From NCBI GenBank assembly GCA_964419235.1, contig CAYQPP010000002.1, positions 1 through 44,693 of the forward strand: a stretch of 44,693 nt of DNA, written 5' to 3'. A model generated the notes under the pieces. It searched no databases. It was given only the letters and a program-made list of their open reading frames with translations, and was not told the origin of the DNA. Position 1 is the first letter of the stretch, and each line of letters opens with the position of its first letter. Source of the DNA: an uncultured Bacteroidales bacterium (lineage in GTDB: Bacteria > Bacteroidota > Bacteroidia > Bacteroidales > SZUA-534). Shown here in pieces: positions 13,443 through 43,209 of this stretch. Both the position numbers and the translations under genes were made by a program.

Positions 13443-13530
13443 GCAATTCCCAAATTTTTGATAAAGTATTTTACTATAAAAATATAAACAATTTTTATGA
13501 AAAATAGATAAAATGGACTAAATATTAAAT

Positions 13531-13572
13531 AAAAAAAATGAGATGCGTCAAATTATTATAGACACACCTCAT
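13531..13572 (-). terminator. Intrinsic terminator downstream of dsbD
   Basis: On the minus-strand RNA, AUGAGGUGUGUC/GACGCAUCUCAU forms a 12-bp stem (two G-U pairs) with an 11-nt loop, followed by a U7 tract. Lies 27 nt after the dsbD stop. Confidence 0.55.
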
Positions 13573-13598
13573 TTATTGGTAATTATGCTAAATGATTT

Positions 13599-15626: not shown

Positions 15627-15798
15627 AATAATAAATATTTTTGTTTTTTAATGCCCAAATAACAGACATTAAAATGTTATTAATTAAGCTGCAAAAGAGT
15701 TAAATATAAATAACTAATTTTCGACTCATCTTATGTTTTTTAGCACTAAAACAGTTTTGTAAACCTATACAATACCAGTACATTTTTGTTTAAAAAAA

Positions 15799-17346
15799 TT
15801 ATAAGAAAACTTTATCTCCCTTGCTATCAATAAAATGATACTCAAGAAACGAATTTGAGTTAGAAGGTTTTATTTTTAACCTACGCAGATATTTTAATCG
15901 CCATTTAAACCCTATTGAAAATATGCCTTTGGTTAAATACGAAGCTATATAAGGGTGCAATTTTAGGGTAATTTTTTTAAATCTGTATTTTTTAAGGCTC
16001 CAACGCACATGGTTTTCAATTTCGTCAACAAAAAGAATGCTTGGCGAAACTTCACCTGAGCCATTACACGATGGACAACGCTCAATAGTTTGTACCGACA
16101 TTTCGGGTCTTACCCTTTGGCGGGTAATTTGCATCAAACCAAATTTGCTAAGTGGCAATATATGATGTTTTGCTCTATCGGAGCTCATATACTCTTTCAT
16201 TTTTTCAAAGAGTTTTTGCCTATTCTCAATATCATGCATATCAATAAAGTCGATAACTATAATTCCTCCCATATCGCGCAAGCGTAACTGGCGGGCTATC
16301 TCTTGGCCTGCTACAATATTAACATCTACCGCATTTTCCTCTTGATTATTATCAGATTGTGTGCGATTTCCGGAATTTACATCAATTACATGAAGGGCCT
16401 CGGTATGTTCAATTACAAGGTAAGCGCCTTTTTTTATAGCAACAGTTTTGCCAAATAGTGCTTTAATCTGTTTTTCAAGACCAAAATACTCAAATATAGG
16501 TTGACTTTTACCGTAATACTTTATTATTTTCTCTTTTTCGGGTGCAACCGATTTAATATAACCGCATATTTCATCATATAGCTTTTTATTATTAATAAAT
16601 ACGCTATTAAACTGACTATTAAGCATATCGCGCAAAATAGCAGTAGTACGGTTCAATTCGCCCAAAATAAGTTTAGGTGGTTTGTTTTTGATATTTACAA
16701 AAGCTCCTTCCCATTTTTGCACCAATTCTCGTAATTCTAAATCTAAATCGGCAACCCGTTTGCTTTCGGCAACGGTTCGTACAATTACCCCATAGTTTTT
16801 GGGTTTAATACTTTGCATAAGTTTACGCAATCTGTCGCGTTCACTTTGATCTTGAATTTTTTGCGAAATCGATACTTTGTCAGAAAAGGGTATCAATACC
16901 AAATTGCGTCCTGCAATTGAAATCTCAGATGCCAATCGTGGACCTTTGGTAGAGATAGGTTCTTTTGCTACCTGAACAATTATTGATTGCCCTTCAGTAA
17001 GTACTTGTTGAATTTTGCCATTTTTATTAATGTCGGGCTCTAATTGAAACTGAGACAAAAAATAATTTTTTTGTCGAGGGTCAAGAGCCATCTTTAAATA
17101 TTTATTCAGAGAACGAAACTGATGCCCTAAATCAAGGTAATGAAGAAAGGCGTCTTTTTCATATCCCACATCAATAAATGCGGCATTTAAACCCGGCATA
17201 ATTTTTTTAATTTTGCCAAGGTAAATATCACCAACCGTAAAATTAGTGCTATTTTTTTCTTTGTTTAATTCTACTAAGTTCTTATCTTCTAAAAGTGCAA
17301 TTACAACTTCCGAAGAAGATGAGTTTATCACAAGTTCCTTACTCAC
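15799..17346 (-). CDS. rng: Ribonuclease G/E family (Rne/Rng)
   Basis: 515 aa. N-terminal S1-like VGDIYLGKIKKIMPGLNAAFIDVG, catalytic region IVIDFIDM, Zn-link-like CPSCNGSG. Confidence 0.85.
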   Translation of the reverse strand: MSKELVINSSSSEVVIALLEDKNLVELNKEKNSTNFTVGDIYLGKIKKIMPGLNAAFIDVGYEKDAFLHYLDLGHQFRSLNKYLKMALDPRQKNYFLSQFQLEPDINKNGKIQQVLTEGQSIIVQVAKEPISTKGPRLASEISIAGRNLVLIPFSDKVSISQKIQDQSERDRLRKLMQSIKPKNYGVIVRTVAESKRVADLDLELRELVQKWEGAFVNIKNKPPKLILGELNRTTAILRDMLNSQFNSVFINNKKLYDEICGYIKSVAPEKEKIIKYYGKSQPIFEYFGLEKQIKALFGKTVAIKKGAYLVIEHTEALHVIDVNSGNRTQSDNNQEENAVDVNIVAGQEIARQLRLRDMGGIIVIDFIDMHDIENRQKLFEKMKEYMSSDRAKHHILPLSKFGLMQITRQRVRPEMSVQTIERCPSCNGSGEVSPSILFVDEIENHVRWSLKKYRFKKITLKLHPYIASYLTKGIFSIGFKWRLKYLRRLKIKPSNSNSFLEYHFIDSKGDKVFL

Positions 17347-24186: not shown

Positions 24187-26472
24187 TTAAAATAGTTCAA
24201 CCTCGATATTTTGGATAAATGCCGTATATGTATATTCATTTTGAACTTTAGCGCCTGCCAATATCATCAATACAGGGGTTTCGCTTCCATCATTGTTCAA
24301 AATATTGGTCTCTTTTCTTATGCCTATTAATTTACGTTTTTCCGAGTGGGTCAAGGTATATATCATCTCGTCCTCTTTTTCATTTTTAACCTCTTTGAAA
24401 AGTTTTTTGACATTTTGCCCAATCACATCTTTTCTTGAGTATCCCCATAAACTTTCGGCTGCACGGTTAAAGAACTCAACAATGCCGTCGTGGTTTATTG
24501 TAATAATTGCATCGTATGCCCCTTCCAGTGTTTTCTCGTTTCTAACCTTTACTTTTTCAATTTCTTGGAATTGGAGTTTAACTTCTTTTTTAGCCTCTTC
24601 GAGTCGTTTTTGTAACTCTAACTTATTGGCTTTAAGCTCATCTTCCTGCTCTTTGAGCAACTTGTTTTGCTGTTTAGTAAGCAGCTCCATCTCTTTCTGC
24701 TCGGTTATATCGTGTGCAATTGATATTATTTTTGACACTTCGCCATACATATTGAATGCGGCTGTATAAGTAACATCAAACCATTGCGTTTTTCCATTAT
24801 GCCCAATAAGTTTTGATTGTCCTTGGTATGGCTCGCCATTTATTACCTTATCCCATATTTCTTCAAATTCGTTTTGGTCATCTTCGCCAACAAAATTAAA
24901 TACGCTATAAGTTTTTAAGTCTTCGGTGGTATATCCTAAAGTATCAATAAATTTTTGGTTACAATCAATCATTCTTCCACTAGGAGCGTATATTATTTTC
25001 AATCCCGATTGGTTTATGGCTTCAATTTGTCCTTCATAATCGAGGCTTTGTTCTTTTTGTTCAGTAGTATCTATTGCTATGAAAAGGATTTTTTCGACCC
25101 CCTGCATATTATTTCTAACACAAGTGTATGTAGCCATTGTCCAAAGGTCTTTTCCTTTTTTGGTAATATGTTTCATATAACCTTCAAAGTGCTTTCCGCC
25201 CCCTGCTAATTCGTCCCAAATTTCATTAAACCACGATTTATCTTTATCGCCAATAAATATTGATATATGATGCCCCTCCACCTCGGAGTTACTACTATAA
25301 CCCATTTTTTTCAAGAATTTAGTGTTGGCGTAAAGCAAAATGCCGTTAATATCGTACTCTGCTCTAATTAATGTATGGTTTACCGAATTTGTAAAGCTGA
25401 TAAATTCTTCAGCTTGCTTGGCTGCCTCTTCTTGAGTAGCCTGCAGCTCTTCCATATTTTGCCGCATTTCTTCCTCTTGCTGGGTAAGCCTTTCGGCAGC
25501 CTCTCGCGATTCGTTTAATAAATTGGCGGTACGGATATTTATTTTTACGGTTGAATAGGTTGTTGCAATACTCTCAGCCACTTTTTCTACAAACTCAATT
25601 TTATATGGCTCAAAATAATCAAATGCTGTTAACTCAATAACTCCATAAACATCTTCATTAACTTTAAGGGGTACAATTAATAAAACATTTGGATTTGCTT
25701 CGCCTAAGCCGCTTGTTATTTCAACATAATCATCGGGGATTTCATCAATGTAAATGGTATTTTTTTCAAAAGCCGACCTGCCTATCAGCCCTTCTGACAG
25801 TTCAATCCTTTTTTTATTATACTTTTTTCTGTCGTATGCAAAATGAGCAATAAGTTCAAAATACTCATCTTCTTTTAATTCATCGTTAATTACAAATAAT
25901 CCGCCTTGTACAGCTCCTATATATCTGCACAAGTTGCTTATAAGTTCGTAACTCAACACCTCAATGTTATCATTATTATGCCTAAGTATCTCTCCGAATT
26001 TTGCTAATCCTTCAGCAATCCAATTGCGTTGTTCATCTTCTTTTTTACGTTGATTTTCCTCTTCGTAATTATTTTTTAGGCTGTTACGTAAATTAATTAA
26101 AATTTTACCAAGTTGATTTTCTTTGGCAGGTTCGTAGTCAATGTCAAGATTGCCTTTTGTCAGGTTTTCGGCAAATTCAAGCATATCGCCTGTTTTTTTT
26201 GCATTTTCTTTTTCTAAATTATCAAGTTTTGAGGCAATGTTGTAAGTAAAATAACCAACAATGTATGCTGTTATGCCAATAATAATTGGGGCGGTATCAA
26301 AAAGGTAATAATACCACCCTGATGAATGAAGTTTAAAAATGTTTTTAAATGTAAAAACCATATCGTTTGATGATAGGATTCCTATGTAAATAATAGCAAC
26401 CTCTATTATACCTAATAAAAAGCCTATAATTGAAAATTGTAGCTTAAAGTTGGTTATTCTTTTCTTTTCCAT
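24187..26472 (-). CDS. Membrane sensor: 2 TM - HAMP-like - GAF - Q/E-rich coiled coil - PAS x3, with no recognisable output domain
   Basis: 761 aa. Two N-terminal TM helices. HAMP-like LTKGNLDIDYEPAKENQLGKILINLRNSL. GAF core (GGLFVIN...VPLKVNEDVYGVIEL). Coil QQEEEMRQNMEELQATQEEAAKQAEE. Three PAS/PAC-like modules. Ends ...NIEVELF. Confidence 0.8.
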   Translation of the reverse strand: MEKKRITNFKLQFSIIGFLLGIIEVAIIYIGILSSNDMVFTFKNIFKLHSSGWYYYLFDTAPIIIGITAYIVGYFTYNIASKLDNLEKENAKKTGDMLEFAENLTKGNLDIDYEPAKENQLGKILINLRNSLKNNYEEENQRKKEDEQRNWIAEGLAKFGEILRHNNDNIEVLSYELISNLCRYIGAVQGGLFVINDELKEDEYFELIAHFAYDRKKYNKKRIELSEGLIGRSAFEKNTIYIDEIPDDYVEITSGLGEANPNVLLIVPLKVNEDVYGVIELTAFDYFEPYKIEFVEKVAESIATTYSTVKINIRTANLLNESREAAERLTQQEEEMRQNMEELQATQEEAAKQAEEFISFTNSVNHTLIRAEYDINGILLYANTKFLKKMGYSSNSEVEGHHISIFIGDKDKSWFNEIWDELAGGGKHFEGYMKHITKKGKDLWTMATYTCVRNNMQGVEKILFIAIDTTEQKEQSLDYEGQIEAINQSGLKIIYAPSGRMIDCNQKFIDTLGYTTEDLKTYSVFNFVGEDDQNEFEEIWDKVINGEPYQGQSKLIGHNGKTQWFDVTYTAAFNMYGEVSKIISIAHDITEQKEMELLTKQQNKLLKEQEDELKANKLELQKRLEEAKKEVKLQFQEIEKVKVRNEKTLEGAYDAIITINHDGIVEFFNRAAESLWGYSRKDVIGQNVKKLFKEVKNEKEDEMIYTLTHSEKRKLIGIRKETNILNNDGSETPVLMILAGAKVQNEYTYTAFIQNIEVELF

Positions 26473-26633: not shown

Positions 26634-27719
26634 TTAATATTGCAGTTTTAACACTCTGTTTGCAATTTTATCTAATGGCATAATCTCGATGGCTGCTTCC
26701 ATTTTAATTGCCTCTTTAGGCATTCCGAAAACTATACATGTTTTTTCGTCTTGTGCAATGGTATGAGCTCCTGCCTCTTTTAATTCGAGCAATCCTCGGG
26801 CTCCGTCATCGCCCATGCCTGTCATAATTACGCCAATAGCATTTTTGCCTGCATATTTTGCTGTTGAGCGAAAAAGTACGTCAACTGACGGCCTGTGCCT
26901 GTTTACTAACGGGCCGTCATTAATTTCAACAAAATAGCGTGCTCCGCTGCGCTTAAGTATTAAATGGTGGTTGCCGGGCGCTATTAAAGCGCGTCCGCGA
27001 ATTACAGTGTCGTTGTTTGAGGCCTCTTTTACTGTTACCTTGCAAAGGTCGTTTAGCCTATTGGCAAACGAACGCGTAAACTGCTCAGGCATGTGTTGCA
27101 CTATTACTACTCCCGGGCTGTCGGCAGGCAATGTTTCAAGAAACACCCTTAATGCTTCGGTACCTCCGGTTGATGCTCCTACAACTACTACTTTTTCGGT
27201 AGTTTTAAGCATGCTTTTGTTTAAGCTGCCTTTTGATATTATGGCATCGGCACTTAACTTGGGTTTTACCTCGATAGGTACAGCCGGTTTTTTTATATTT
27301 TTTTTGCGCTTTAGCTTTGCGCTTGCAGCAGCTTTAATGGCATCAATAATCCTTGTTTTCGACTCTTCGATAAACTCTTTTGTGCTAAGTTTTGGTTTTG
27401 TTATGATTTCGACAGCCCCGTATTCTAATGCTTTTATTCCGGTTTCGGTTCCGGTTTCGGTTAAGCTTGAAATAATTACTACAGGAATTGGGTGTTGAGT
27501 CATTATTTTGCGCAAAAAAGTTAAGCCGTCCATTCGTGGCATTTCAATATCGAGTGTAATAACATCGGGGACTTCATGTGCTATTTTGTTGGCGGCAAAA
27601 TATGGGTCGGCAGCTACTCCCATTACTTCAATAAGTGGATCATGCATTAATATACTGCTGAGCGTTTGTCGAACTACAGCCGAATCGTCAACTATTAAAA
27701 CTTTTATTTTTTCGTTCAT
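26634..27719 (-). CDS. cheB: Chemotaxis response regulator protein-glutamate methylesterase
   Basis: 361 aa. Receiver (VLIVDDS...[12 protein letters not shown]...) plus methylesterase motifs [33 protein letters not shown]. Confidence 0.92.
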
Positions 27720-27720
27720 T

Positions 27721-28218
27721 TTATTGCCGTTGTTTTTGGATGAGTTTCATTAGTACTACTCCCGTTTCGGTATTAAAACGTATTTTTCGTCCTAAAGTAC
27801 CTCCTACACTTTGTCCTGTTATTTTTATTTTGTTTTCTTTTAGAGCCTTTATTGCTATTTCGATATTTCGTTCGCCAATTTTAAATATATTGGTTTTTGA
27901 TTCAACAATTTCGCCCCCGCCAAATACTTTAGCTTGCAGGTTAGTTGGTTTTGAACCAAAATTTATCATTTTTTCAATAAGTTTTTGGATAGCTATGTTG
28001 CCATATTTTGGCGATGCCAACCCTGTACCGTTCCAAAATGGCAACATATAATGGTTTATTCCTCCTATTTTTTTTACGGGATCGTACAGGCATACGGCCA
28101 CGCATGAGCCCAAAATAGTATCTACCAAAAATGGGGTTTCATCAGCAAACAGGGCTGATGGGTACAAAAAATGTGTATTTATTTGGCTATTAGAAGATTC
28201 CATCCTCATTGTCATCAA
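27721..28218 (-). CDS. cheD: Chemoreceptor glutamine deamidase CheD
   Basis: 165 aa. [48 protein letters not shown]. The start is uncertain (Met at 28218, 28215, 28209 or 28203). Overlaps the upstream kinase-like gene by 14-29 nt. Confidence 0.85.
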
Positions 28219-29089
28219 AAATAAATTCGTTTCCGTCTAAGGCATATCCTTCGGTATCGCTAATTTCTGATTGTGGTATTGATACCGTAAATACTGACCC
28301 TATATTTTGTTTGCTTACTATCTCTATTTTCCCGTCTAATATGTCAATTAGGGCTTTTGTTACCGACAACCCGAGACCGTGCCCCGGGTTTAATGAGTTT
28401 ATTGAGGTGTCGATTCTTTTAAATCGGTCGAAAATAGTGGCAAGGTTTTTTTTGTTTATGCCAATGCCATAATCTTTAACCGATACTTTTAATGTGTCAT
28501 CCTCAACCCAGCCATTAACTTCGATACGGTTTGCGGCATTACTGTATTTAATTCCGTTATTAAGCAGGTTTGATATTATAAGCCTCAATTTTTCGGGGTC
28601 GGTTTTAAAAAAGCAGGCTTCTTTTAATTTTTTATCGAGCTTAAACGAGAAATTTATTTTAAGCTGTTTTTGCTCGGCTTTATATTCATATGCGCTTATT
28701 ACACTACCAATTAATAGGTTAATGTCGGTTTTAATAAATTCGGGGAATGCTTCGCCCGCCTCAATGCGTGCTGCTGTAAATATATTTTTTAACTGAAAAT
28801 CAAGTTCAAAGGCTTCGGAATGTATCAATTCGGCCATGTTTTTAATTTTCTTGATATCAATATCTTTTGCTGCGATTATATTTTTTGACAACCCCAATAT
28901 TGAAGCAAATGGGTTAACTATTTCATTTGTTATGTTTGAAATAAAATGGCTTTTTAGGGCTTCTGATTCAGTTAGTTTTTCGTTTACCAGCTTTAATTCG
29001 TCACGTTGTTTACCTATTGTTTTGTAGCAACCGGCAGCTTCCTTGAGCTTTAATTTAAGTTCTTCAATAAATTCTTTATCTGACAGCAT
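28190..29089 (-). CDS. Soluble HisKA/HATPase_c protein lacking the phospho-acceptor histidine (His->Asn)
   Basis: 299 aa with no TM or sensor domain. DHp H-box reads KSHFISNITNEIVNPF where the other kinases in this window read FLSNMSHEIRTPM and GVAHEINNPI. N-box LLNNGIKYS, G1 DYGIGI, F FDRF and G2 GHGLGLS are intact. Confidence 0.8.
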   Translation of the reverse strand: MLSDKEFIEELKLKLKEAAGCYKTIGKQRDELKLVNEKLTESEALKSHFISNITNEIVNPFASILGLSKNIIAAKDIDIKKIKNMAELIHSEAFELDFQLKNIFTAARIEAGEAFPEFIKTDINLLIGSVISAYEYKAEQKQLKINFSFKLDKKLKEACFFKTDPEKLRLIISNLLNNGIKYSNAANRIEVNGWVEDDTLKVSVKDYGIGINKKNLATIFDRFKRIDTSINSLNPGHGLGLSVTKALIDILDGKIEIVSKQNIGSVFTVSIPQSEISDTEGYALDGNEFIFDDNEDGIF

Positions 29090-29099
29090 AGCGGTTTAT

Positions 29100-29951
29100 T
29101 TATGTTTTTATAAATACTGTTGGTTTTATATTTTTTAAAGGCACTTTCATGTTAGTAATTGATTCGGAGTGCCCTAAAAAGAAATAGCCTTTGGGGTTTA
29201 ATTTGCTACATAATTTATTAATTACCTGCTCTTGGTTTTCTCTTTCGAAATAGATGAGTGCGTTTCGGCAAAATATAATATCAAACATTTCATTAACGTT
29301 ATAATTTGTGTCCATAAAATTTAACCGTTGAAATTTCACTCTATCTCTAAGCACTTTATTAACCCTGACTTTTGGGTCGGTACGGTTTTTTGATTTTTGA
29401 AAATATTTCTTTTTTAAGTTAAGCGGAATAATTTCAATGCGTTCTTCTTTATAAATGGCATTAGCTCCTTGTTGCAGCATTTGGGTAGATATGTCGGTGC
29501 CAATTATCTCAAAATCGAAGCCGAGGTTTTTTTCTTTAAATTCGTTTAAAACAATGGCAAGCGTATAGGGTTCTTCGCCCGATGAACAGCCTGCGCTCCA
29601 AACTTTTACTCTTCTAATTCCTTTATTATTGAACAGATCGGGTAAAATATCATCTGTTAATACCTCAAAGTGTATTGGCTCGCGATAAAAATCGGTTTTG
29701 TTTGTGCTAACTACATCCATCATGTGTATAATCTCGTTTTTGCCCTCTTTGCTAAAAACAAAGTCAACATATGTTTTATAATCGGGCATTTGGAGTTTTC
29801 GCAACCGCTTTTGTAGCCTTCCCTGTAAAACTATTCTTTTTGCAGGGGGCATTTTTATTCCATAGTTTATTTGAATGAATTGGCTTAATTTATTAAATTC
29901 TTTGTCTGATAAAGAGGTGTTATAAATACTATTGCTTAATATGCTATCCAT
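29100..29951 (-). CDS. cheR: Chemotaxis protein methyltransferase CheR
   Basis: 283 aa. N-terminal helical CheR_N-like region. SAM-binding VWSAGCSSGEEPYTLA and IFCRNALIYF. Confidence 0.9.
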   Translation of the reverse strand: MDSILSNSIYNTSLSDKEFNKLSQFIQINYGIKMPPAKRIVLQGRLQKRLRKLQMPDYKTYVDFVFSKEGKNEIIHMMDVVSTNKTDFYREPIHFEVLTDDILPDLFNNKGIRRVKVWSAGCSSGEEPYTLAIVLNEFKEKNLGFDFEIIGTDISTQMLQQGANAIYKEERIEIIPLNLKKKYFQKSKNRTDPKVRVNKVLRDRVKFQRLNFMDTNYNVNEMFDIIFCRNALIYFERENQEQVINKLCSKLNPKGYFFLGHSESITNMKVPLKNIKPTVFIKT

Positions 29952-29977
29952 AAATAGATTAAAATAGATTATTTTAG

Positions 29978-30520
29978 TTATGCATTATTTGTTTCTGCAT
30001 CAATTTTTTCAATATCCTCCTTCTCTAATTTTTCAACATCTTTGGTTATAAGCAACTCGGTTGTGCTAAAAATAAGGTCGATATTTAGGAGCATAATAAA
30101 GCCTTTGTCTAATTTATACATGCCTTGTATAAATTCGGTTTTGTATTTTGTTCCTATGGCCGGCGACTCTTCAATTTCGCTATCTTTTATTTCTAAAACC
30201 CTGTCAACCGTATCAACTAATATACCGAGTTGTATATTCTCTTGGTCGATTATAATATTAAGCACAATAATGCAGGTGTTTTTTGTAAACTCCGTTGCCT
30301 CCATTCCAAATTTAATACGCATATCAATTACCGGTAATACGTTGCCTCGAAGGTTAATAACCCCTCTCATGTAATTGGGCGAATTGGGTACTTTTGTAAT
30401 GGGCTTTAATTCTAAAATAGTTAAAACCTTTGCTACATTAACTGCAAAAAACTCTTTATTCAGTTTAAATGATAAAAAGGTAGATACATTATCTACGGTA
30501 TCTAATATATTCTCATCCAT
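29978..30520 (-). CDS. cheW: Chemotaxis coupling protein CheW
   Basis: 180 aa. FLSFKLNKEFFAVNV...VPNSPNYMRGVINLRGNVLPVIDMRIKFG is a typical CheW domain. Confidence 0.9.
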   Translation of the reverse strand: MDENILDTVDNVSTFLSFKLNKEFFAVNVAKVLTILELKPITKVPNSPNYMRGVINLRGNVLPVIDMRIKFGMEATEFTKNTCIIVLNIIIDQENIQLGILVDTVDRVLEIKDSEIEESPAIGTKYKTEFIQGMYKLDKGFIMLLNIDLIFSTTELLITKDVEKLEKEDIEKIDAETNNA

Positions 30521-30522
30521 AA

Positions 30523-32571
30523 TTAACCTCCAATTTTAATTTCGTTGCTGGCAAAATCCGATATAAGTTTATTTGTATCCATAACAAGCGCAACTGAGCC
30601 GTCGCCTAATATTGTGGCTCCTGATATTGACTGTTGATTTTTGTACATTTTACCAAGAGGTTTTAATACTGCTTGATACTGACCTATTATATTGTCAACC
30701 GACAATCCTATTTTTGTTTCGCCGTATTGCACTACTACAACATGCTCGGTTTCTTGTGCTTCGCCTTCAATTTCAAACAGCTTGCGCATGTTAAGGTGGG
30801 CAATTTCGGTATCTTCTGTCCTTATTAAATGGTTTACGGCATTTTCAAGTACCGAATGTTTAAATTCGTAACATTTATCGACCGACGATAATGGTATCAC
30901 AAATTTGGTGTCGCCTAATTGTACTAGCAATCCATCAATTATTGATAGTGTTAACGGCAATTTTATTGTTATAGTTGTCCCTTTGTTTATTGTTGAGTCA
31001 ATTTCAACCTCGCCCCTAATTTCGGCTATTTTGCGTTTTACCACATCCATGCCTACCCCACGTCCTGAGACTTTTGTTATTTTTTTGGCTGTTGAGAAAC
31101 CGGGTTGAAAGAGCAGGTCGAATATTTCTTTATCTGACAGTTCTGCTTCGGGAGCTATCAACCCTTTTAAAATTGCTTGGGTTTTTATTTTTTCGGGGTC
31201 GATACCTTTGCCGTCGTCGGATATTTGGATTACCACGCTTGTGCCTGAATAAAAAGCTTTTAATAGTATGGTTGCCCGTTTGGGTTTGCCTATGCGTTGG
31301 CGTTCGTCGGCATTTTCGATACCGTGATCCATGCTGTTTCGTACGATATGCATAAGCGGATCGGCCAATATTTCAATAATATTTTTATCGAGCTCGGTTT
31401 CGGTGCCTTCGGTTTTAAACACTACTTCTTTGCCCATCTCTTGCGATAATTCTCTAACCAGCCTGTGAAATCGCGTAAGCATATTTTCGATTGGTATTAG
31501 CCTTATGCTAAAAACATCGTCGCGCAAGCGGCGCGAAATTTTTTCTACCTCTTCAACAATAGGCATCAATTCTGCAGTTTCGGTTTTGGTGGCAAAAAGG
31601 CTCAGGCGTGCTTGTATTGTTATAAGCTCGCTTACCCAATTAATCAGGTTGTCTAACTTGTCTGACGATACTCTAATGCTGCTTATACTTGTTTTTGCTT
31701 TGTTGTCGCCAAATTTTTGTGCTTGTTTTTCTTGTTCTTTCGAAAATACTTTTTCTAACTCTTGTGTTAATAAAAGCAGTTGGTTAACGTCAACCTTTTT
31801 TTGGTTGCTGATGGTTTCTTCTATTATCCCGATAAATGACGGCTCCTCCAAAAGGTTTATTTCGGCAACTTTATGCACGTTTAAATCGCATTGGTCGTCG
31901 GCAAAAATAAAAACCTCGCCAACGGCGTTTATGCCTTGGTTGGTTGCCAAAAATATGTCCCAATACACATAGCATTTTGTAGGGTCCATGCTGTTGCTAT
32001 CGGGCAATTTGTCAAACCTCGGAAATACTTTTATCTCGCCTAATTCATATAGTTCATCAATTAGGTACAATGGGTTTGTTCCAAATTTAAAGATATTATC
32101 GTGTGGAATAAAACTGATGTAATAGGTTGACAAGTTTTTGTTTTTTCGTGCATCAATATGCTGTATGGTAGCGCCAACATCTTGTGCAACAACATTTTCG
32201 TCAATAATGTCTATTATTTTTGTCAATAGCAAATCGTGCTGTACTTGATGGGCAGAATCGGCATCGTCTTCTTCGTGTATCAGGTTGCGCAAATGATCTA
32301 CCGATGCCAAAGTAACATTAAGTATGTCGTCGTTTATGGCAAGTTTCTTGTTTCGGATTAAATCATATATATTCTCGAGGTGGTGTGTAAATTTATCCAT
32401 TTTTTTAAACCCAAACATGGAGCTGCCACCTTTAAGTGAGTGCATAACCCTGAACACCTGTTCTATTATTTCAGGATTCTCCTGATTGCCATCGAGTTCA
32501 AGCAGCGATTTTTCGAGATCGTTGATTAAATCATTGGCTTCCTCTATAAATTTTTCTCTGAATTTATCCAT
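30523..32571 (-). CDS. cheA: Chemotaxis histidine kinase CheA
   Basis: 682 aa. Hpt MHSLKGGSSMFGF, dimerisation IRVSSDKLDNLINWVSELI, HATPase DPLMHIVRNSMDHGIE, DDGKGID, GRGVGMDVV, and a C-terminal CheW-like P5 domain. Confidence 0.93.
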   Translation of the reverse strand: MDKFREKFIEEANDLINDLEKSLLELDGNQENPEIIEQVFRVMHSLKGGSSMFGFKKMDKFTHHLENIYDLIRNKKLAINDDILNVTLASVDHLRNLIHEEDDADSAHQVQHDLLLTKIIDIIDENVVAQDVGATIQHIDARKNKNLSTYYISFIPHDNIFKFGTNPLYLIDELYELGEIKVFPRFDKLPDSNSMDPTKCYVYWDIFLATNQGINAVGEVFIFADDQCDLNVHKVAEINLLEEPSFIGIIEETISNQKKVDVNQLLLLTQELEKVFSKEQEKQAQKFGDNKAKTSISSIRVSSDKLDNLINWVSELITIQARLSLFATKTETAELMPIVEEVEKISRRLRDDVFSIRLIPIENMLTRFHRLVRELSQEMGKEVVFKTEGTETELDKNIIEILADPLMHIVRNSMDHGIENADERQRIGKPKRATILLKAFYSGTSVVIQISDDGKGIDPEKIKTQAILKGLIAPEAELSDKEIFDLLFQPGFSTAKKITKVSGRGVGMDVVKRKIAEIRGEVEIDSTINKGTTITIKLPLTLSIIDGLLVQLGDTKFVIPLSSVDKCYEFKHSVLENAVNHLIRTEDTEIAHLNMRKLFEIEGEAQETEHVVVVQYGETKIGLSVDNIIGQYQAVLKPLGKMYKNQQSISGATILGDGSVALVMDTNKLISDFASNEIKIGG

Positions 32572-32936
32572 TATCGTACAACTTTATTTATTGCTGCTAA
32601 AAGTTTTTCGGGTACAAAAGGCTTTATTATCCAGCCTGTTGCTCCGGCTTCTTTTGCTTCCATTTTTTTTGCCGTTTGCGACTCTGTGGTCAAAAACAGA
32701 ATGGGAACAAATTGATAATCGGCATTTGCCCTTACATTTTTAATAAATTCTATGCCATTCATATTGGGCATGTGCAAGTCGGTAATTATCAAGTCAAACT
32801 TGGTTTTGTCAAGAAATTTTAAGGCGTCTTGTCCGTCAATGCCTTTTGAAACTTCATGTCCTGCATTCTCAAGGGTAAAGCTTACTACCTCACGAATACT
32901 TTCTGAATCGTCAACTATAAGTATTTTCTTTCCCAT
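32571..32936 (-). CDS. cheY: CheY-like single-domain response regulator
   Basis: 121 aa. KILIVDDS, DLIITDLHMPNMNG, LFLTTES, IIKPF. Its stop overlaps the cheA start by 1 nt. Confidence 0.9.
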   Translation of the reverse strand: MGKKILIVDDSESIREVVSFTLENAGHEVSKGIDGQDALKFLDKTKFDLIITDLHMPNMNGIEFIKNVRANADYQFVPILFLTTESQTAKKMEAKEAGATGWIIKPFVPEKLLAAINKVVR

Positions 32937-32954: not shown

Positions 32955-33266
32955 TTAATTAATTGTATTGGCAAATCCTGCTCTTTTAAACAGCTCTAAT
33001 GTTTCGTTATTTATGCCGAGGTCTATTTTTATTTCGATGTTCGACTCTTGGCACATTTGTTTTAATCCTACTAAGTATTGAACCAGCGATAAATCGGCAT
33101 CATCGACCTCGGATATTTTCAGGTTTACTTTTTTGCTGTTTTTAATAGCAGAGCTTAATTCCTTTTTGATTCCCATAATATTGGAAACATTCAAATACCC
33201 TTGCACCTCGATATCAAGCGCCTTGGTTTTTTTGTTTTTTGATGAGTTAATTCGATACTCTTTCAT
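32955..33266 (-). CDS. STAS-domain protein (anti-sigma-factor-antagonist fold)
   Basis: 103 aa. LDIEVQGYLNVSNIMGIKKEL...VNLKISEVDDADLSLVQYLVGLKQ...IEIKIDLGINNETLELFKRAGF fits the STAS beta-alpha pattern. The DSSG-type phospho-Ser motif reads DLSL. Confidence 0.7.
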   Translation of the reverse strand: MKEYRINSSKNKKTKALDIEVQGYLNVSNIMGIKKELSSAIKNSKKVNLKISEVDDADLSLVQYLVGLKQMCQESNIEIKIDLGINNETLELFKRAGFANTIN

Positions 33267-33304: not shown

Positions 33305-35110
33305 TTAAAACAGTTCAATGTCGTTATCATCAATGTTATATGGAATGCTGTCGGACTCGTTTAACAGTTCGTCAACGCTTTTTCCGGTATCCGTAAGTTT
33401 GGCGTGTATATCGCGCTCGCTTTTCATGGTATATAGTTTTTCAATCTCCTTAAGGTACTTTTTGTTATCGCCCAAATTGCTTTTTAATGAATCGTAATTT
33501 ACTATTTTGTTAATTTCGTTTAATAAGGATACAATCTCTTCAACTGTTATCTTAAAATACGTGTAATACTCTATTTTCTTTAATGATAATGTTATTTCAT
33601 CCGATATTTTGGTGCTCAACAAAGCATATTCTTTAGTTTTCTGTTTTATTTGGCCTGTTTTGTCCGAAAGGTTATCTATTGATTTTTTATCAATATAATA
33701 ATTTTCACTTCGAGGTTTAAAGGTATCAAAAATATTTGTTAAAAACTTAATATTTTGAGTAATACTGTTAAGATGTGTTTTTAAAGAGTTTGAATTAACC
33801 TGTAAATCAGAGAATAAGTCTTTTATCCTGCGGGTAAGCTCTTTTCCGAAATTTTTGCCGTTTGCACGCATAAGCGATTCAAAATTATGAACCTCTTTTC
33901 GCAATGCCTTTTCATTCAAAAATATGGTATTATATTCATTTTTCAGGTTGTTGTAATCACTTTTCAGTTGGCTGATTTTAACGGTTGCTTTTTTTCGGTT
34001 TTCAGTAAGTTTTTCAAAATATCCCGAAAAAACACCTTGAGCCGCAACAATTTGGTTTATTGTGTTGCTATCAAATTTGTAGGCATTTTCATGTATTGAG
34101 CTGTATATTGAATGTAATGCCTTCATTTCATTGCCTACCTCGATAAGCTGGTTTGTTATTTTTTCAATTGATGTTTGATAATCTTTATTTGTATATAGGA
34201 GTTGTGCTACTTGTATGTCGGTAATTTCGGGTATTTTTACTATTAACTGCAATTGATCGTCGGTATTTTGCTCCGATTTGTTTATACTCTTTATTTCGTT
34301 TATCAGCTTATTTTGCGATGTTTGTATATGCTCCATTTTTTGCCTTATAATATCGTGGTACTGAATGTTTGTAATAACCTCGCCCATGTAGGCAAAACAC
34401 TTTTGTGTACGGCTGTTTAAGTCTGACACAAAACTTTCGGGCAAATAACTGTCTGATGATATTTTTTTAAATATGTTTATTGCTTTTCTTATTTCGTTGT
34501 TTAGTTTTGAGCTGCTTAAATTCTCGATTAGACAGGTGTTGTTTTTTAAATATGTAATTTGCTTTGACACCGATTCTGTATTCGTGTCGATTTTTTCTAT
34601 CTGATTATATATTTTCTCGATACTGCTTTCAATTGACTCAACACTTTTTTGTAATTCGTTTTTGTTTGACAGCTCAACATAATTAAGATGCAGTTTTAAA
34701 TTGGCAAGTATGTATTTTAAGGTAATGAGGTTTTGTTTAAAATTATTAAAAGGCACAACCAACAAATCAATTGAGGAGTATATTTGGGTAAGCAGGTCAA
34801 TAACGTTATTTATATTAGAGTCGGTTTCGCTTATCAGTTTTACCTGCATTGCGTTTTTATCGTTTATGTCACTTTTTATGACAGGTAAATCGTTATTAAT
34901 AAATACCGATATAACACTATTTGCATCTGAAATTTCTTTAATGTTTTTGTAATACTGCTTTAATAGCTTATTAAAATATAAAAAGTCTTTTGACGAAATG
35001 GTATGTAGCGAACTGATTTTAGTATCAATATCGCTCAGCTTATTAATAATTTCGTTACGTGGAAAATTATTTAAAAAATTATTTAGTATATTGTTGTCGA
35101 CTTTACCCAT
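33305..35110 (-). CDS. 601-aa soluble, predominantly helical/coiled-coil protein of unknown function; first gene of the Che-like operon
   Basis: Long uninterrupted ORF with N/K/I/E/S-rich heptad-like sequence and no TM segment. No MCP tip motif. Contains NIQYHDIIRQKMEHI (D253-x3-Q257). Acidic tail ...VDELLNESDSIPYNIDDNDIELF. Confidence 0.6.
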   Translation of the reverse strand: MGKVDNNILNNFLNNFPRNEIINKLSDIDTKISSLHTISSKDFLYFNKLLKQYYKNIKEISDANSVISVFINNDLPVIKSDINDKNAMQVKLISETDSNINNVIDLLTQIYSSIDLLVVPFNNFKQNLITLKYILANLKLHLNYVELSNKNELQKSVESIESSIEKIYNQIEKIDTNTESVSKQITYLKNNTCLIENLSSSKLNNEIRKAINIFKKISSDSYLPESFVSDLNSRTQKCFAYMGEVITNIQYHDIIRQKMEHIQTSQNKLINEIKSINKSEQNTDDQLQLIVKIPEITDIQVAQLLYTNKDYQTSIEKITNQLIEVGNEMKALHSIYSSIHENAYKFDSNTINQIVAAQGVFSGYFEKLTENRKKATVKISQLKSDYNNLKNEYNTIFLNEKALRKEVHNFESLMRANGKNFGKELTRRIKDLFSDLQVNSNSLKTHLNSITQNIKFLTNIFDTFKPRSENYYIDKKSIDNLSDKTGQIKQKTKEYALLSTKISDEITLSLKKIEYYTYFKITVEEIVSLLNEINKIVNYDSLKSNLGDNKKYLKEIEKLYTMKSERDIHAKLTDTGKSVDELLNESDSIPYNIDDNDIELF

Positions 35111-39950: not shown

Positions 39951-40218
39951 TCTTTTATTTAGACAATTTCAATTAATTGAATCATTCATTTTATTCACAT
40001 TTTGTTAATAAAATGCTTTAAAGTTTAAATAGTTTTTGTGCAAACGCTAAATTTATATGTTGTAGTTATTGCAACATAACGTGCTATGTGCATTTAGTGT
40101 TAAGCAGCAAAAAGAAAATTTTATAGAATAATTACGAAATAAACTTGAAAATAGCTATCTTTTGAGGCATTTTAAAATAATTCAAACATTATAACCTAAA
40201 TTGAGCGATTCCAAACTA

Positions 40219-42816
40219 ATGTTTAAGCTTTTTTTTATATTAATATTTTTATTAAGCTTTTGGTTTAATGCTGTATCACAAACCTCCGAATCGAAGGTTA
40301 AAGCAGAGTTGATTTATAGGTTTTCTCAATATATTGAGTGGAAAAACGAACCCTTAATTGATACATTTAGGTTTGGGTTGTTAACTAATGATTCTACACT
40401 TATCAGTGAATTTAAAATTATCACTAAATCAACAAATCTAAGGTCAAAGCCTATAAAAGCTTTTGTTTTTGATGAAATTGCCAATTTTGAAACCATGCAT
40501 TGTATTTTTATTGATTATGGTTTTAGGAGGCATATGGCCGAGGTTGCGAGTTTAACAAAAAGAAAAGGGGTATTGTTAATTACATATAACACGCCCGATT
40601 TATTGCTAACCATGATAAATATTTATAAGTCAAAAAAAGAGATGACTTTAAAATATGTTGTCAATAAACAAAATTTAGATGAAGATAACTTTATTTATAA
40701 ACCAGAGCTATTGCTTTATGGTGGTAGTTTGGTTGATATTAAGGAGCTATACATTTCAACTAATAAAAAATTAAGTACAAAAAACAAAGAGCTTGATTCA
40801 ATTAACCGAAATTTGATTGAATTAAAAGAGAAGAGTGCTGAATACAAAACTCAAATTGAGCAAATGTCGTTACACAAACTCACAATGTTGCAACAGGTTA
40901 ATGAAAAAGAGTTAGAGGTGGCAAGGCTTAACAGCGAAATCAGCATTAAGGATTCAAGCTTGAGTAAAAGGAATATTGAACTTCAAACCCAAAAGGAGTA
41001 TAGAAAATTATTATCGAATAAGATTAAAGATAAAATGGATTCTATAGTATTAAAAGAGAGCAACTTAAAGGAGTTAAGCATACTATTGAGCGAGAAAAGA
41101 GATCTGATTTCTGAAAATCAACTATTAATTGATGAACAGCACTTGAAAATTGAGACTCAACAAAAAGGATTGTTAGTAGCTACTGTCTTTACTTTTACGT
41201 TAATTATAATTGTTCTGTTGGTAGTAATAGCACTTAGAACAAAAAAACGGTTAGCAAAGCGATTGGAATATTTGGTTGACATTAGAACAAAAGAACTTAA
41301 TAAAAGCAAGCAATACTACTTTAGTATTTTTGAGAATTCACCGGTTTCAATTTGTGAATTCGACCTATCGCTATTGGTTGATTATCTTAAAAAAAACAAG
41401 ATAAAATTACAAAACGGTAAGTATGCTTTACCCGACAAGCTGATTTTAAAGGCTGTTAAATTAATAAAAATAACAGATGCCAATTTTAAAACCTTAGAGC
41501 TGTATAATGCCAGCAGCAAACATGAATTTATAAAAAAATACGATCAGCTTTTTAATCAAGAATCAGTTGCAGGGTTAAAAAAACTTTTTGAAAAACTGCT
41601 TAATGAGGAAAAACAGTTTGAATTTGAGATAACAAGGATATCTTTAAAAAAAGAGATTAAACATTTGCTGCAAAGTTTTATCGTTTTGCCCGAAGACGAA
41701 GGAAAATATACAAATGTACTTGTATCGATGCTTGATATAACCGACTTGAAAATGTATGAACATGAAATAATTCGTCATCGCGATCATCTTGAAGAGCTGG
41801 TAAAAGAGCGTACAAAAAAAATTGTTGAATTAAACAGCTACTTGTCAAATGCAAACGACGAGCTGCAAAGCAAAAATGAAGATCTATCGGAAAAAAACAA
41901 CCTGTTAAATAAGCAGCAGGGCGAAATATCGGATCTGAACAGCGAACTGATTGAAACCAATACGCAACTTGAGGAGCAAAAAGAGGAGTTGTTGAACACG
42001 TTGTTGCAATTAAAAGATACGCAAATGCAGCTTGTTGAATCGGAAAAAATGGCTTCGCTTGGTATGCTTACCGCCGGAGTAGCGCATGAAATAAACAATC
42101 CTATTAATTTTATCAGCTCGGGAAACCAAGCCTTAGAGATGCTTTTTGACGACATGTGGGATAAGATTGACAATTTTAGGTTTTTGAACAGCGACTCGGC
42201 TTTAGAGTTGGTTGAAAGGGTAAAAGAGTTCTCGAAAGAGGTTGACAACGAGAATTATAAAATAACCATTAAAGAGATAATAGGAAACATTAAAATGGGC
42301 GTTACCCGAATTACCGAGATTGTCGGCAGCCTCCAAAAATACTCATCGAAATCGGAAATAGACACAACCCCTTTTAGTATTAACGACTGCATTAACGATG
42401 CCTTGGTAATTCTAAAAAATAGATATAAATATAAGGTTGAAATTGTAAGGCTTTTTGGCGATACCCCTTTAATTATCTCATCATTAGGTAAGCTCAATCA
42501 GGTTTTTGTCAATATTTTTTCAAATGCATTTGATGCAATAATTGAAAAAGGGGTTGTAAAGGTAACCACCTCCTATAAAAAAAGCGATAATGTTGTAGAG
42601 GTTATTATAAGCGACAATGGCATAGGGATAAACGAAGATGACCTAAACAAAGTTTTTGACCCGTTTTTTACAACAAAAGAAACCGGAAAAGGTACAGGTT
42701 TGGGAATGTACATCTCTTATGGCATTATTAATCAATTGAAGGGTACTATAAAATTTGAATCAAAAGTTGGCGAGGGGACAAAAGTTATTATTGAATTACC
42801 AATAAAATTGCAGTAA
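40219..42816 (+). CDS. Sensor histidine kinase with periplasmic YfiR/DUF4154-like domain and long periplasmic coiled coil
   Basis: The ATG at 40219 (track start is the TTG at 40201) gives the signal peptide MFKLFFILIFLLSFWFNAVSQ. VKAELIYRFSQYIEWKN resembles the YfiR/DUF4154 signature. A coiled coil of about 140 aa precedes one TM (LLVATVFTFTLIIIVLLVVIAL). Then a PAS-like segment, another coil, H-box GVAHEINNPINF, N-box NIFSNAFDA, DNGIGI, GTGLGMYIS. Confidence 0.8.
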   Translation: MFKLFFILIFLLSFWFNAVSQTSESKVKAELIYRFSQYIEWKNEPLIDTFRFGLLTNDSTLISEFKIITKSTNLRSKPIKAFVFDEIANFETMHCIFIDYGFRRHMAEVASLTKRKGVLLITYNTPDLLLTMINIYKSKKEMTLKYVVNKQNLDEDNFIYKPELLLYGGSLVDIKELYISTNKKLSTKNKELDSINRNLIELKEKSAEYKTQIEQMSLHKLTMLQQVNEKELEVARLNSEISIKDSSLSKRNIELQTQKEYRKLLSNKIKDKMDSIVLKESNLKELSILLSEKRDLISENQLLIDEQHLKIETQQKGLLVATVFTFTLIIIVLLVVIALRTKKRLAKRLEYLVDIRTKELNKSKQYYFSIFENSPVSICEFDLSLLVDYLKKNKIKLQNGKYALPDKLILKAVKLIKITDANFKTLELYNASSKHEFIKKYDQLFNQESVAGLKKLFEKLLNEEKQFEFEITRISLKKEIKHLLQSFIVLPEDEGKYTNVLVSMLDITDLKMYEHEIIRHRDHLEELVKERTKKIVELNSYLSNANDELQSKNEDLSEKNNLLNKQQGEISDLNSELIETNTQLEEQKEELLNTLLQLKDTQMQLVESEKMASLGMLTAGVAHEINNPINFISSGNQALEMLFDDMWDKIDNFRFLNSDSALELVERVKEFSKEVDNENYKITIKEIIGNIKMGVTRITEIVGSLQKYSSKSEIDTTPFSINDCINDALVILKNRYKYKVEIVRLFGDTPLIISSLGKLNQVFVNIFSNAFDAIIEKGVVKVTTSYKKSDNVVEVIISDNGIGINEDDLNKVFDPFFTTKETGKGTGLGMYISYGIINQLKGTIKFESKVGEGTKVIIELPIKLQ

Positions 42817-42840: not shown

Positions 42841-43209
42841 TTAAAGCGAATTATAAGCCTTGTCCAAAGTTTTTAACAACTCATCCTTTTTCCAAGGTTT
42901 AATTATGTACTCAAATATATCTGCTTCGTTTAGCCCCATACTTATTGCCTCCGACAGATAGTAAGCCGACAACAAAAAACATATTTTTTCAGGGTACTTT
43001 TTTTTTATCTCACTAACGAGCTCAATGCCATCCATCTCAGGCATTTTTAAATCTGATATAATAACAGAAACATCCTCACTCTCAATTATTTCCAAAGCCT
43101 CTTGCCCCGAACTTGCTAAGTAAAGTTCAAAATGTTTTTGAAAATTAAATTTGAATAACTGTAAATTGATAAATTCATCGTCAACATATAAAAGCTTAGG
43201 CATTCCCAT
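42841..43209 (-). CDS. Single-domain response regulator (receiver only)
   Basis: 122 aa. LLYVDDE, VIISDLKMPEMDG, LLSAY, IIKPW. Convergent with the DUF4154 kinase gene. Confidence 0.85.
   Translation of the reverse strand: MGMPKLLYVDDEFINLQLFKFNFQKHFELYLASSGQEALEIIESEDVSVIISDLKMPEMDGIELVSEIKKKYPEKICFLLSAYYLSEAISMGLNEADIFEYIIKPWKKDELLKTLDKAYNSL

Follow-up and report, generated by a model that had tools for sequence, protein, structure and literature searches.

A Che-like operon on the minus strand of the stretch of DNA analysed here (the window; 44,693 nucleotides of contig CAYQPP010000002.1 from an uncultured Bacteroidales bacterium) is headed by a 601-aa open reading frame (ORF) that starts with ATG and spans 33305-35110. 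The protein is called ORF600, the name used for its family of approximately 600-aa members, and it is quite probably a very diverged, soluble Bacteroidales counterpart of the McpA-like receptor of F7-type chemotaxis clusters. Taken together, the reading frame, an AlphaFold2 (AF2) model and profile matches describe a soluble, two-hairpin, McpA-like member of the MCP (methyl-accepting chemotaxis protein) superfamily with a degenerate tip. The original prediction had favored a giant CheZ-analogous phosphatase or scaffold and had kept an extremely diverged soluble receptor as its fallback. The profile, fold and tail tests all spoke against the CheZ part, whereas the fallback was supported by a chain of profile matches, a shared C-terminal tail and the gene order. 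Other features proposed from the sequence were also borne out: Pfam annotation of the window placed ORF600 at the head of the operon, the maximum Kyte-Doolittle mean over 19 residues was 1.49, which is consistent with the absence of a transmembrane (TM) helix, and the AF2 model was all-helical (predicted local distance difference test, pLDDT, 79). Residues 583-601 were disordered in the model.

The assignment would give an identity to a large unannotated family, one without a Pfam or NCBIfam model, that heads the Che-like operons of many uncultured Bacteroidales. It would also extend the McpA-like receptor and the ancestral F7-type layout beyond the Proteobacteria to a phylum, the Bacteroidota, that to our knowledge lacks flagella, and would mean that MCP counts based on PF00015 overlook receptors of the ORF600 type. 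The C-terminal motif of McpA would then be conserved across phyla and present as well on a GAF-PAS sensor and on CheD, which makes the search for its binding partner well defined.

Profile chain, gene order and architecture

Direct sequence and profile searches with ORF600 gave no match in Pfam, NCBIfam or PDB sequences beyond coiled-coil bias. The top PDB profile match, TM1143, was set aside because its alignment was confined to non-conserved coiled coil. Eighty-five homologues of approximately 600 aa, ranging from close to distant, were found in Bacteroidales metagenome-assembled genomes (MAGs), and at least 271 relatives, all likewise near 600 aa, were found when one genome per GTDB species was scanned, the best 80 of these 271 all being from Bacteroidota MAGs. 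A profile search of 1.84 billion representatives returned 648 clusters (50% identity) at E<1e-30 and 1745 at E<1e-10, and a 106-aa core fragment used as the query gave four candidates. We found no description of the Bacteroidales ORF600 family in the literature. The analyses below used an alignment of 47 members (down to 22% identity), a profile of 84 sequences, 86 family ORFs for tail counts and 80 related loci annotated by phmmer for gene context.

The connection to receptors was provided by alphaproteobacterial proteins. A tblastn search of plasmid records with ORF600 gave a single weak match (E 0.1) to a 576-aa "chemotaxis protein" encoded beside a che cluster on Agrobacterium leguminum p1 (WP_304983968.1). 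The sequence of this protein includes LQIGDITRQRVEHVQ and YTMAQERDVH, an acidic tail that ends in DLFADALF and an unmistakable MCP tip, MALNSNLRCSKLGDEGRSVNVVSGELRVFA. The ORF600 hidden Markov model (HMM) matched it with 65.8 bits in one colinear domain of approximately 430 residues, versus at most 18 bits in scattered pieces for canonical MCPs. Full-length relatives were present in Shinella, Rhizobium, Novosphingobium, Sphingomonas and Methylosinus, and in the alphaproteobacterial loci read the gene lies beside STAS-CheY-CheA (Shinella) or directly after CheB (Sphingomonas and Methylosinus). By hhalign, the ORF600 profile (84 sequences) aligned with four of the alphaproteobacterial homologues over 431 columns (98.0%, E 2.8e-13), and the alphaproteobacterial family aligned with canonical MCPs across the tip (94.9%, E 4.7e-8). 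The alphaproteobacterial proteins also gave sub-threshold matches to MCPsignal and to the MCP equivalog, and tblastn matches to real MCPs. These comparisons link ORF600 to the MCP superfamily by homology through intermediate sequences.

The alphaproteobacterial proteins of che clusters, which are approximately 575 aa long and bear the annotation "chemotaxis protein," "hypothetical protein" or "type VII secretion target," are colinear with ORF600, soluble and of the same length. Common to both are LQxxDIxRQ+xEH, YTMxxERxxH and an acidic tail with LF at its end. The alphaproteobacterial proteins differ in their recognizable MCP tip (ALNxxLxxxxxGxEGRxxxVVxxELR), in the Ile-Gly that precedes the Asp and in a tail that reads D[AG]LF, not [IV]ELF. 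The "type VII secretion target" label of the homologue from Shinella sp. H4-D48 p2 (L094, 5977-7701, plus strand) came from a spurious WXG100/EspC match over the MCP tip. The same protein passed the cut-off of NCBIfam LA_3659 (37 bits vs. 36) and matched the SpiroCoCo coiled coil below the cut-off, which hints that the Leptospira LA_3659 family may be related to MCP tips.

A second point of comparison was the F7 cluster on Vibrio chromosome 2, which consists of a STAS-like gene, CheY, CheA, two CheW, an Aer2-like MCP (ending in EWEEF), CheR, CheD, CheB and a McpA-like receptor. The latter is a 398-aa protein with an N-terminal TM helix that scored 88 bits against the MCP HMM built here, ends in GEVELF and contains IRALQFTDIIVQQ, whose Asp lies 105 residues after the tip Glu.

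The gene order of the operon, read by Pfam on the minus strand, is ORF600, STAS, CheY, CheA with a C-terminal CheW domain, CheW, CheR, a histidine kinase (HK), CheD, CheB and a GAF/PAS protein. The STAS-domain protein (32955-33266, minus strand), recognized by Pfam and by its place in the F7 stage-1 order, follows ORF600 after 38 bp and resembles the CheS or anti-sigma-antagonist genes of alpha- and gammaproteobacterial clusters. The genes from CheY through CheB, including the sensor-less HK, occupy 26634-32936 (minus strand, Pfam), and they are followed by a 761-aa GAF-PAS-PAS protein without an output domain (24187-26472, minus strand). The ancestral F7 cluster has been given as STAS-cheY-cheA-cheW-cheW-aer2-cheR-cheD-cheB-mcpA-like-STAS-Ser phosphatase (Ortega et al. 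2020, PMC7184735), and Shewanella che1 runs from mcpA (SO_2117) to SO_2126 with crsA (STAS), crsR, cheY, cheA, cheW, aer2, cheR, cheD and cheB (PMC9855816). The window order matches both F7 stage 1 and Shewanella che1, to which the Bacteroidales cluster adds the HK and the GAF-PAS protein. The usual order in relatives was ORF600, an approximately 105-aa STAS-like protein, CheY (at times two), CheA, CheW, a variable slot, CheR, HK, CheD, CheB and GAF/PAS. The STAS-like gene held the same position in the Che-linked loci examined and was missing from rumen-lineage loci.

The slot between CheW and CheR contained nothing canonical in 35 of the 45 operons that were complete up to CheR, one to three canonical MCPs in the remaining 10, and no canonical MCP in the window; MCPs also followed CheW in 12 further, incomplete loci. 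In sister operons the slot MCPs have genuine xZxxZ pentapeptides at their C-termini, [DE][FY]E[KRNQ][FY] (EFEKF, EYEKF, DYERF and DFEQY). In such a CheR/CheB-tethering pentapeptide Z is F, W or Y (PMC7390727). Each arm of these MCPs is shorter by one heptad than in E. coli Tar, which makes them 34H-like; the same pairing of pentapeptide and class has been reported for Geobacter.

ORF600 was modeled as two tandem hairpins. Hairpin 1, delimited by the AF2 model, conservation and an internal repeat, spans residues 18-277 (34280-35059, minus strand) with an N-arm at 18-142, a loop at 143-149 and a C-arm at 150-277, and has the conserved segments SSKDFLxFN (39-47) and VPxxNFxQNLxTLKYLLANLKL (119-140). 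Hairpin 2 spans residues 283-555 (33446-34264, minus strand) with an N-arm at 283-415, a U-turn at 416-422 and a C-arm at 423-555, and it aligns with the MCP signaling hairpin of the alphaproteobacterial homologues. The AF2 helices at 283-415 and 423-537, joined by the turn, form a long antiparallel coiled-coil hairpin as in MCPs. The degenerate MCP tip, VHNFESLMRANGKNFGKELTRRIKDLF, lies at residues 405-432 (33815-33898, minus strand), where it aligns with the Agrobacterium tip and is poorly conserved in the family. The AF2 U-turn independently coincides with this homology-aligned tip. The N- and C-terminal halves of the protein aligned with each other (hhalign 83% over 180 columns, a score that the coiled-coil composition may inflate), and the alignment placed the loop at 143-149 opposite the turn at 416-422. 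A turn of hairpin 1 at residues 116-117 was rejected, as the internal repeat and the seven-residue AF2 loops fit 143-149 better. The weak tip resemblance noted previously at FKQNLITLKYILANLKL lies just before the hairpin 1 loop, away from the tip backed by homology. It could be what remains of a first tip, a suggestion without statistical support, and an alignment by eye of such a first tip, NFKQNLITLKYILANLKL with AFQTNLLALNAAIEAAR, was likewise rejected (hhalign 0.5-3%).

The conserved base blocks are at residues 246-263, 293-322, 515-533 and 560-569. The second of these, IxDIxxxQVAQLxYTNKEYQxAIExIT (34145-34234, minus strand), was found in the alignments at the start of hairpin 2. The last structured element, YTMKSERDIH (residues 560-569; 33404-33433, minus strand), conforms to the YTMxxERxxH shared by Bacteroidota and alphaproteobacterial homologues. 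A disordered linker of variable acidic sequence follows at residues 575-596 (33323-33388, minus strand; pLDDT below 50).

The invariant D-x3-Q block and the C-terminal tail

The most conserved block of the family has the consensus ITNLQ[YF][HQE]DII[RK]QKMEHIQ and is present in ORF600 as ITNIQYHDIIRQKMEHIQ (residues 246-263; 34322-34375, minus strand), at the end of the hairpin 1 C-arm with D253 approximately 107 residues past the loop. The segment NIQYHDIIRQKMEHI, located by the original prediction at 34325-34369 with the codons of D253 and Q257 at 34352-34354 and 34340-34342, was exactly placed. Both residues were invariant in the family and were kept in alpha- and gammaproteobacterial relatives. 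Invariant among the 47 aligned sequences were Q250, D253, I254, I255, Q257, K258, M259 and H261. ORF600 has four D-x3-Q sequences, one of them with an aromatic residue at -2. Since approximately 0.13 such sites are expected from composition, aromatic-x-D-x3-Q by itself is weak evidence. The lineage signature LQ[YF]xDIIxQ, with the window form LQYHDIIRQK, has a chance expectation of approximately 1e-6 in 400 aa and is found in the Vibrio McpA-like receptor as LQFTDIIVQQ, 105 residues after the tip. The alphaproteobacterial homologues carry the block as LQIGDITRQRVEH, in which the aromatic residue before the Asp is replaced by Ile and the Q/H by Gly.

The block is at tip plus approximately 102-104 residues, compared with plus 94 for the corresponding segment of the 36H receptor Tar, and TQQNAxLVEE of canonical MCPs can be aligned with LQFTDIIVQQ of Vibrio and LQYHDIIRQK of the window. 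Position and pattern, rather than statistical backing, suggest that the D-x3-Q block was probably derived from the QQNAxxxEE methylation-helix segment of MCPs. In this alignment the E/Q doublet would begin at Q257, with K258 at the methyl-accepting position, so ORF600 is probably not methylated there.

ORF600 ends in NIDDNDIELF, whose last five residues (DIELF; 33308-33322, minus strand) fit the McpA-like C-terminal motif [DET][IVL][ED]L[FY]. The tail pattern was detected in 85 of the 86 family ORFs and in none of 2251 unrelated ORFs of the same loci. In family tails a stretch of acidic residues precedes [DN][ILV]E[LF]F (DIELF, DVELF, NLELF or DVEFF), and the published McpA-like tails are DIELF, EVELF, EIELF, DVELF, DLELF, TVELF and DIDLF (PMC7184735, Suppl. 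Table 12). In McpA-like receptors the xZxxZ tether is absent and the C-terminus, which has Val at position 2, is conserved to a striking degree (PMC7184735); its motif was called "important yet unclear" in the literature. The ORF600 tail is not xZxxZ either: position 5 is Phe, but position 2 is I, L or V in nearly all members. The same tail was present on 20 of 37 GAF/PAS-labeled ORFs of related loci, ending in [IV]EVELF or SVDLF, and the GAF-PAS-PAS protein of the window ends in AFIQNIEVELF. The distribution of the motif suggests that the ELF tail is a shared docking tag for a pathway component. The D-x3-Q block and the Phe-ended tail are best taken as conserved marks of the receptor lineage and not as signs of a CheZ phosphatase.

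The motif is not restricted to receptors, since the CheD of Vibrio sp. THAF191c (L095, 9911-10555, plus strand) ends in HDDDVELF; the CheD of the window is without the tail. A second copy of the tail, D[VIL]DLF or VELF, precedes the terminal NLELF by approximately 18 residues in Tenuifilaceae-like loci (L006, L049, L054, L060, L064, L067, L073, L075 and L082).

Receptor, phosphatase or adaptor

The known McpA-like receptors (P. aeruginosa PA0180/CttP, V. cholerae VCA1088 and S. oneidensis SO_2117) share with ORF600 the C-terminal motif in the absence of xZxxZ, a STAS-adjacent gene upstream of cheY-cheA-cheW-(pentapeptide MCP)-cheR-cheD-cheB, the LQ[FY]xDIIxQ sequence approximately 105 residues past the hairpin turn (in one Vibrio example) and a heptad class that is hard to assign. 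ORF600 differs from them in its occurrence in Bacteroidota, in being soluble without a TM helix or an MCPsignal match, in its degenerate tip and in its approximately 600 aa and two tandem hairpins, compared with 398 aa and one hairpin in the Vibrio example. With canonical MCPs (PF00015, including the soluble Aer2/McpB) it has in common the antiparallel hairpin, the che operon and a disordered linker with a short C-terminal docking peptide, but it is without a direct profile match, a conserved tip or EE/QE doublets, and position 2 of its terminal peptide is aliphatic.

Several of these differences, together with other observations, weigh against the McpA-like receptor assignment. None of the 47 members matched Pfam MCPsignal (PF00015), and because direct hhalign of ORF600 with 30 canonical MCPs gave 0.4%, the link to MCPs is transitive only. 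Few parts of the family's sequence are less conserved than the tip region, so that a highly conserved CheA/CheW-binding tip is not present. No adjacent E/Q pair occurred in at least 50% of the 84 family sequences, hence methylation doublets are missing, which agrees with K258 at the methyl-accepting position. In gammaproteobacteria, McpA-like receptors are membrane-bound and have one hairpin, whose tip is canonical, and the comparison of their body with ORF600 comprises one Vibrio sequence and a 10-residue motif, with hhalign of the N-terminal half at 6% over 35 columns. The slot MCPs are 34H-like and not of the 36H Aer2 type, and the cluster is F7-like by layout. The tail of P. aeruginosa McpA binds none of four CheRs, which its Val at position 2 prevents (PMC7184735). 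CheR is therefore unlikely as the tail partner, and a reading of the ORF600 tail as a variant of the CheR/CheB pentapeptide (with E third and F fifth) was rejected on the same ground. The beta-subdomain of the operon CheR has basic residues at the equivalents of R187 and R197 and is without the three glycines, but these features are non-discriminating because operons with and without slot MCPs have them alike.

As a diverged McpA-like protein, ORF600 would be a dimer that provides the Che pathway with a receptor-like input or a scaffold, its function being carried by the conserved base region and the tail and not by the tip. Because the tip is not conserved, ORF600 may no longer nucleate canonical CheA/CheW arrays. 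The ELF tail would dock a pathway component, with the output-less GAF-PAS sensor and the Vibrio CheD bearing the same tag, and ORF600 may act beside canonical 34H-like pentapeptide MCPs that come from the slot or from elsewhere in the genome.

CheZ is known in Proteobacteria, and a CheZ-analogous CheY~P phosphatase, in which D253 and Q257 would enter the CheY active site like D143 and Q147 of CheZ while the acidic, Phe-ended tail tethers CheY, is improbable for ORF600. ORF600, like CheZ, has an aromatic residue and Q/H followed by D-x3-Q on a long coiled-coil helix, in the same heptad register (aromatic at a, D at c, a hydrophobic residue at d and Q at g), and a C-terminus that is acidic and disordered and closes with Phe. 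The invariance of D253 and Q257 holds across three phyla or classes, the gene is two genes from cheY, and the Pfam scan detected no CheC, CheX or CheZ in the operon, as had been proposed. The CheZ signature is AXX[FY]Q-DXXXQ (PMC7750401), and the [YF][HQE]DII[RK]Q of the family matches its [FY][QH]DxxxQ portion. The position of the Ala, however, is N or K in the family, and in the alphaproteobacterial homologues the aromatic and Q/H positions are Ile-Gly. The D-x3-Q motif is also found inside a bona fide Vibrio MCP and is shared with receptors.

Tests for similarity to CheZ itself were negative. PF04344 gave no match at E≤1 in the 47 members, and hhalign of the ORF600 family gave 0.2% with E. 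coli CheZ and 0.1% with a five-sequence CheZ profile (1.6% for the alphaproteobacterial family vs. CheZ). The small profile, of E. coli, Cupriavidus, Ralstonia, Pantoea and Photobacterium sequences from plasmid-borne genes, was built because E. coli CheZ as a query returned only homologues with at least 71% identity. Foldseek searches of the PDB with the full model and with a 146-residue fragment (residues 200-345, pLDDT 89) returned SMC-, EnvC- and colicin-like coiled coils and no CheZ, a weak test as helical hairpins are fold-poor. The tail, which had been likened to the CheY-binding helix of CheZ, matches the McpA-like motif instead of DDLLxSLGF, CheZ tails having the form QxxVDDLL[ADS]SLG[FI], and ORF600 is three times longer than CheZ. 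Rumen-lineage members keep both the motif and the tail, with no cheY or cheA in the 4-10 kb of downstream flanking DNA examined. S. meliloti CheS binds CheA and promotes turnover of CheY1~P (PMC12654446), so the CheS-like STAS protein, together with extra single-domain response regulators, offers routes of signal termination without CheZ. We give equally little credence to CheZ-like chemistry inside a tip-degenerate receptor that has stopped nucleating arrays, in which an invariant polar stripe of Q250, D253, Q257 and E260/H261, descended from the methylation helix, would dock and dephosphorylate a receiver (CheY or CheB) and [IV]ELF would be a portable tag recruiting the receptor, the GAF-PAS sensor and the Vibrio CheD to one F7 hub.

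The sequence YHDIIRQ can also be read as H-D-x-x-x-Q, and with a sensor-less HK in the operon the block could be a DHp-like helix of the HisKA_3 type (NarX and DesK are examples) that lacks a catalytic domain and engages in phosphotransfer or phosphatase activity with the 299-aa HK. This is highly improbable: H252 is Q in approximately 25 of 86 members, E in one sequence of the 47-sequence alignment, Gly in the alphaproteobacterial proteins and Thr in Vibrio, and this lack of conservation of the His led to rejection of the H-box reading. No member of the 47 matched HisKA_3 in Pfam, and no DHp was among the Foldseek matches.

It is rather unlikely that ORF600 is an ex-receptor that has lost CheA/CheW signaling and whose base region and tail now serve purely in an adaptor or regulatory role, for example to bring together the STAS/CheS-like protein, the sensor-less HK or the GAF-PAS protein. 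The degenerate, unconserved tip beside invariant base blocks and tail would fit such a role, as would the lack of methylation-type E/Q pairs, the adjacent STAS-like gene of the Che-linked loci, the tail shared with the GAF-PAS protein and the coexistence of canonical MCPs in 10 of 45 complete and 12 incomplete operons. McpA is dispensable for F7 array formation in gammaproteobacteria (PMC7184735). Yet the 35 complete operons without a canonical slot MCP have CheR, CheD, CheB, CheW and CheA and no other receptor-like slot protein, and in the rumen lineages cheW alone is still found next to or close to ORF600, hinting at a surviving CheW partnership. There cheW was adjacent to ORF600 in one locus and within approximately 8 kb in others.

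Neighboring genes and locus variants

The sensor-less 299-aa HK (HisKA/HATPase; 28190-29089, minus strand) separates CheR from CheD in the majority of Bacteroidales operons that are complete there and is an addition relative to the proteobacterial F7 layout in the literature. Slot MCPs were present, for example, in L003 (15349-19297), L028, L029, L038, L056, L074, L080, L083 and others. In L006 the slot is occupied by a 422-aa protein without a Pfam match (15438-16706, plus strand), which may be another unrecognized receptor. In L009 an 810-aa CheA (12658-15090, plus strand) is fused with CheW, as shown by phmmer matches to both, and no stand-alone CheW follows.

Rumen or gut Bacteroidales loci in which ORF600 is detached from the Che operon are L031, L033, L042, L043, L046, L047, L050, L068, L069 and L081. 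DUF4199 and a GT2 glycosyltransferase lie ahead of the detached gene, and a CheW-ApbE pair is adjacent (L050) or approximately 7 kb away. A TPR-SpoIIE phosphatase gene also neighbors ORF600 in L050.

Elsewhere in the window, a 7TMR-DISM-PAS-SpoIIE (PP2C) protein is encoded at 10872-13442 (minus strand), and a similar gene lies approximately 8 kb from the operon in L003. Because ancestral F7 clusters end in STAS and a serine phosphatase, the SpoIIE protein of the window could be a partner-switching phosphatase candidate for the STAS protein of the operon. On the other side of ORF600, 176 bp of AT-rich sequence lie between it and a divergent response regulator. Further upstream are a DUF4154 (YfiR/HmsC-like)-histidine kinase (40201-42816, plus strand) and a single-domain response regulator (42841-43209, minus strand), and the window as a whole is unusually rich in signaling genes.

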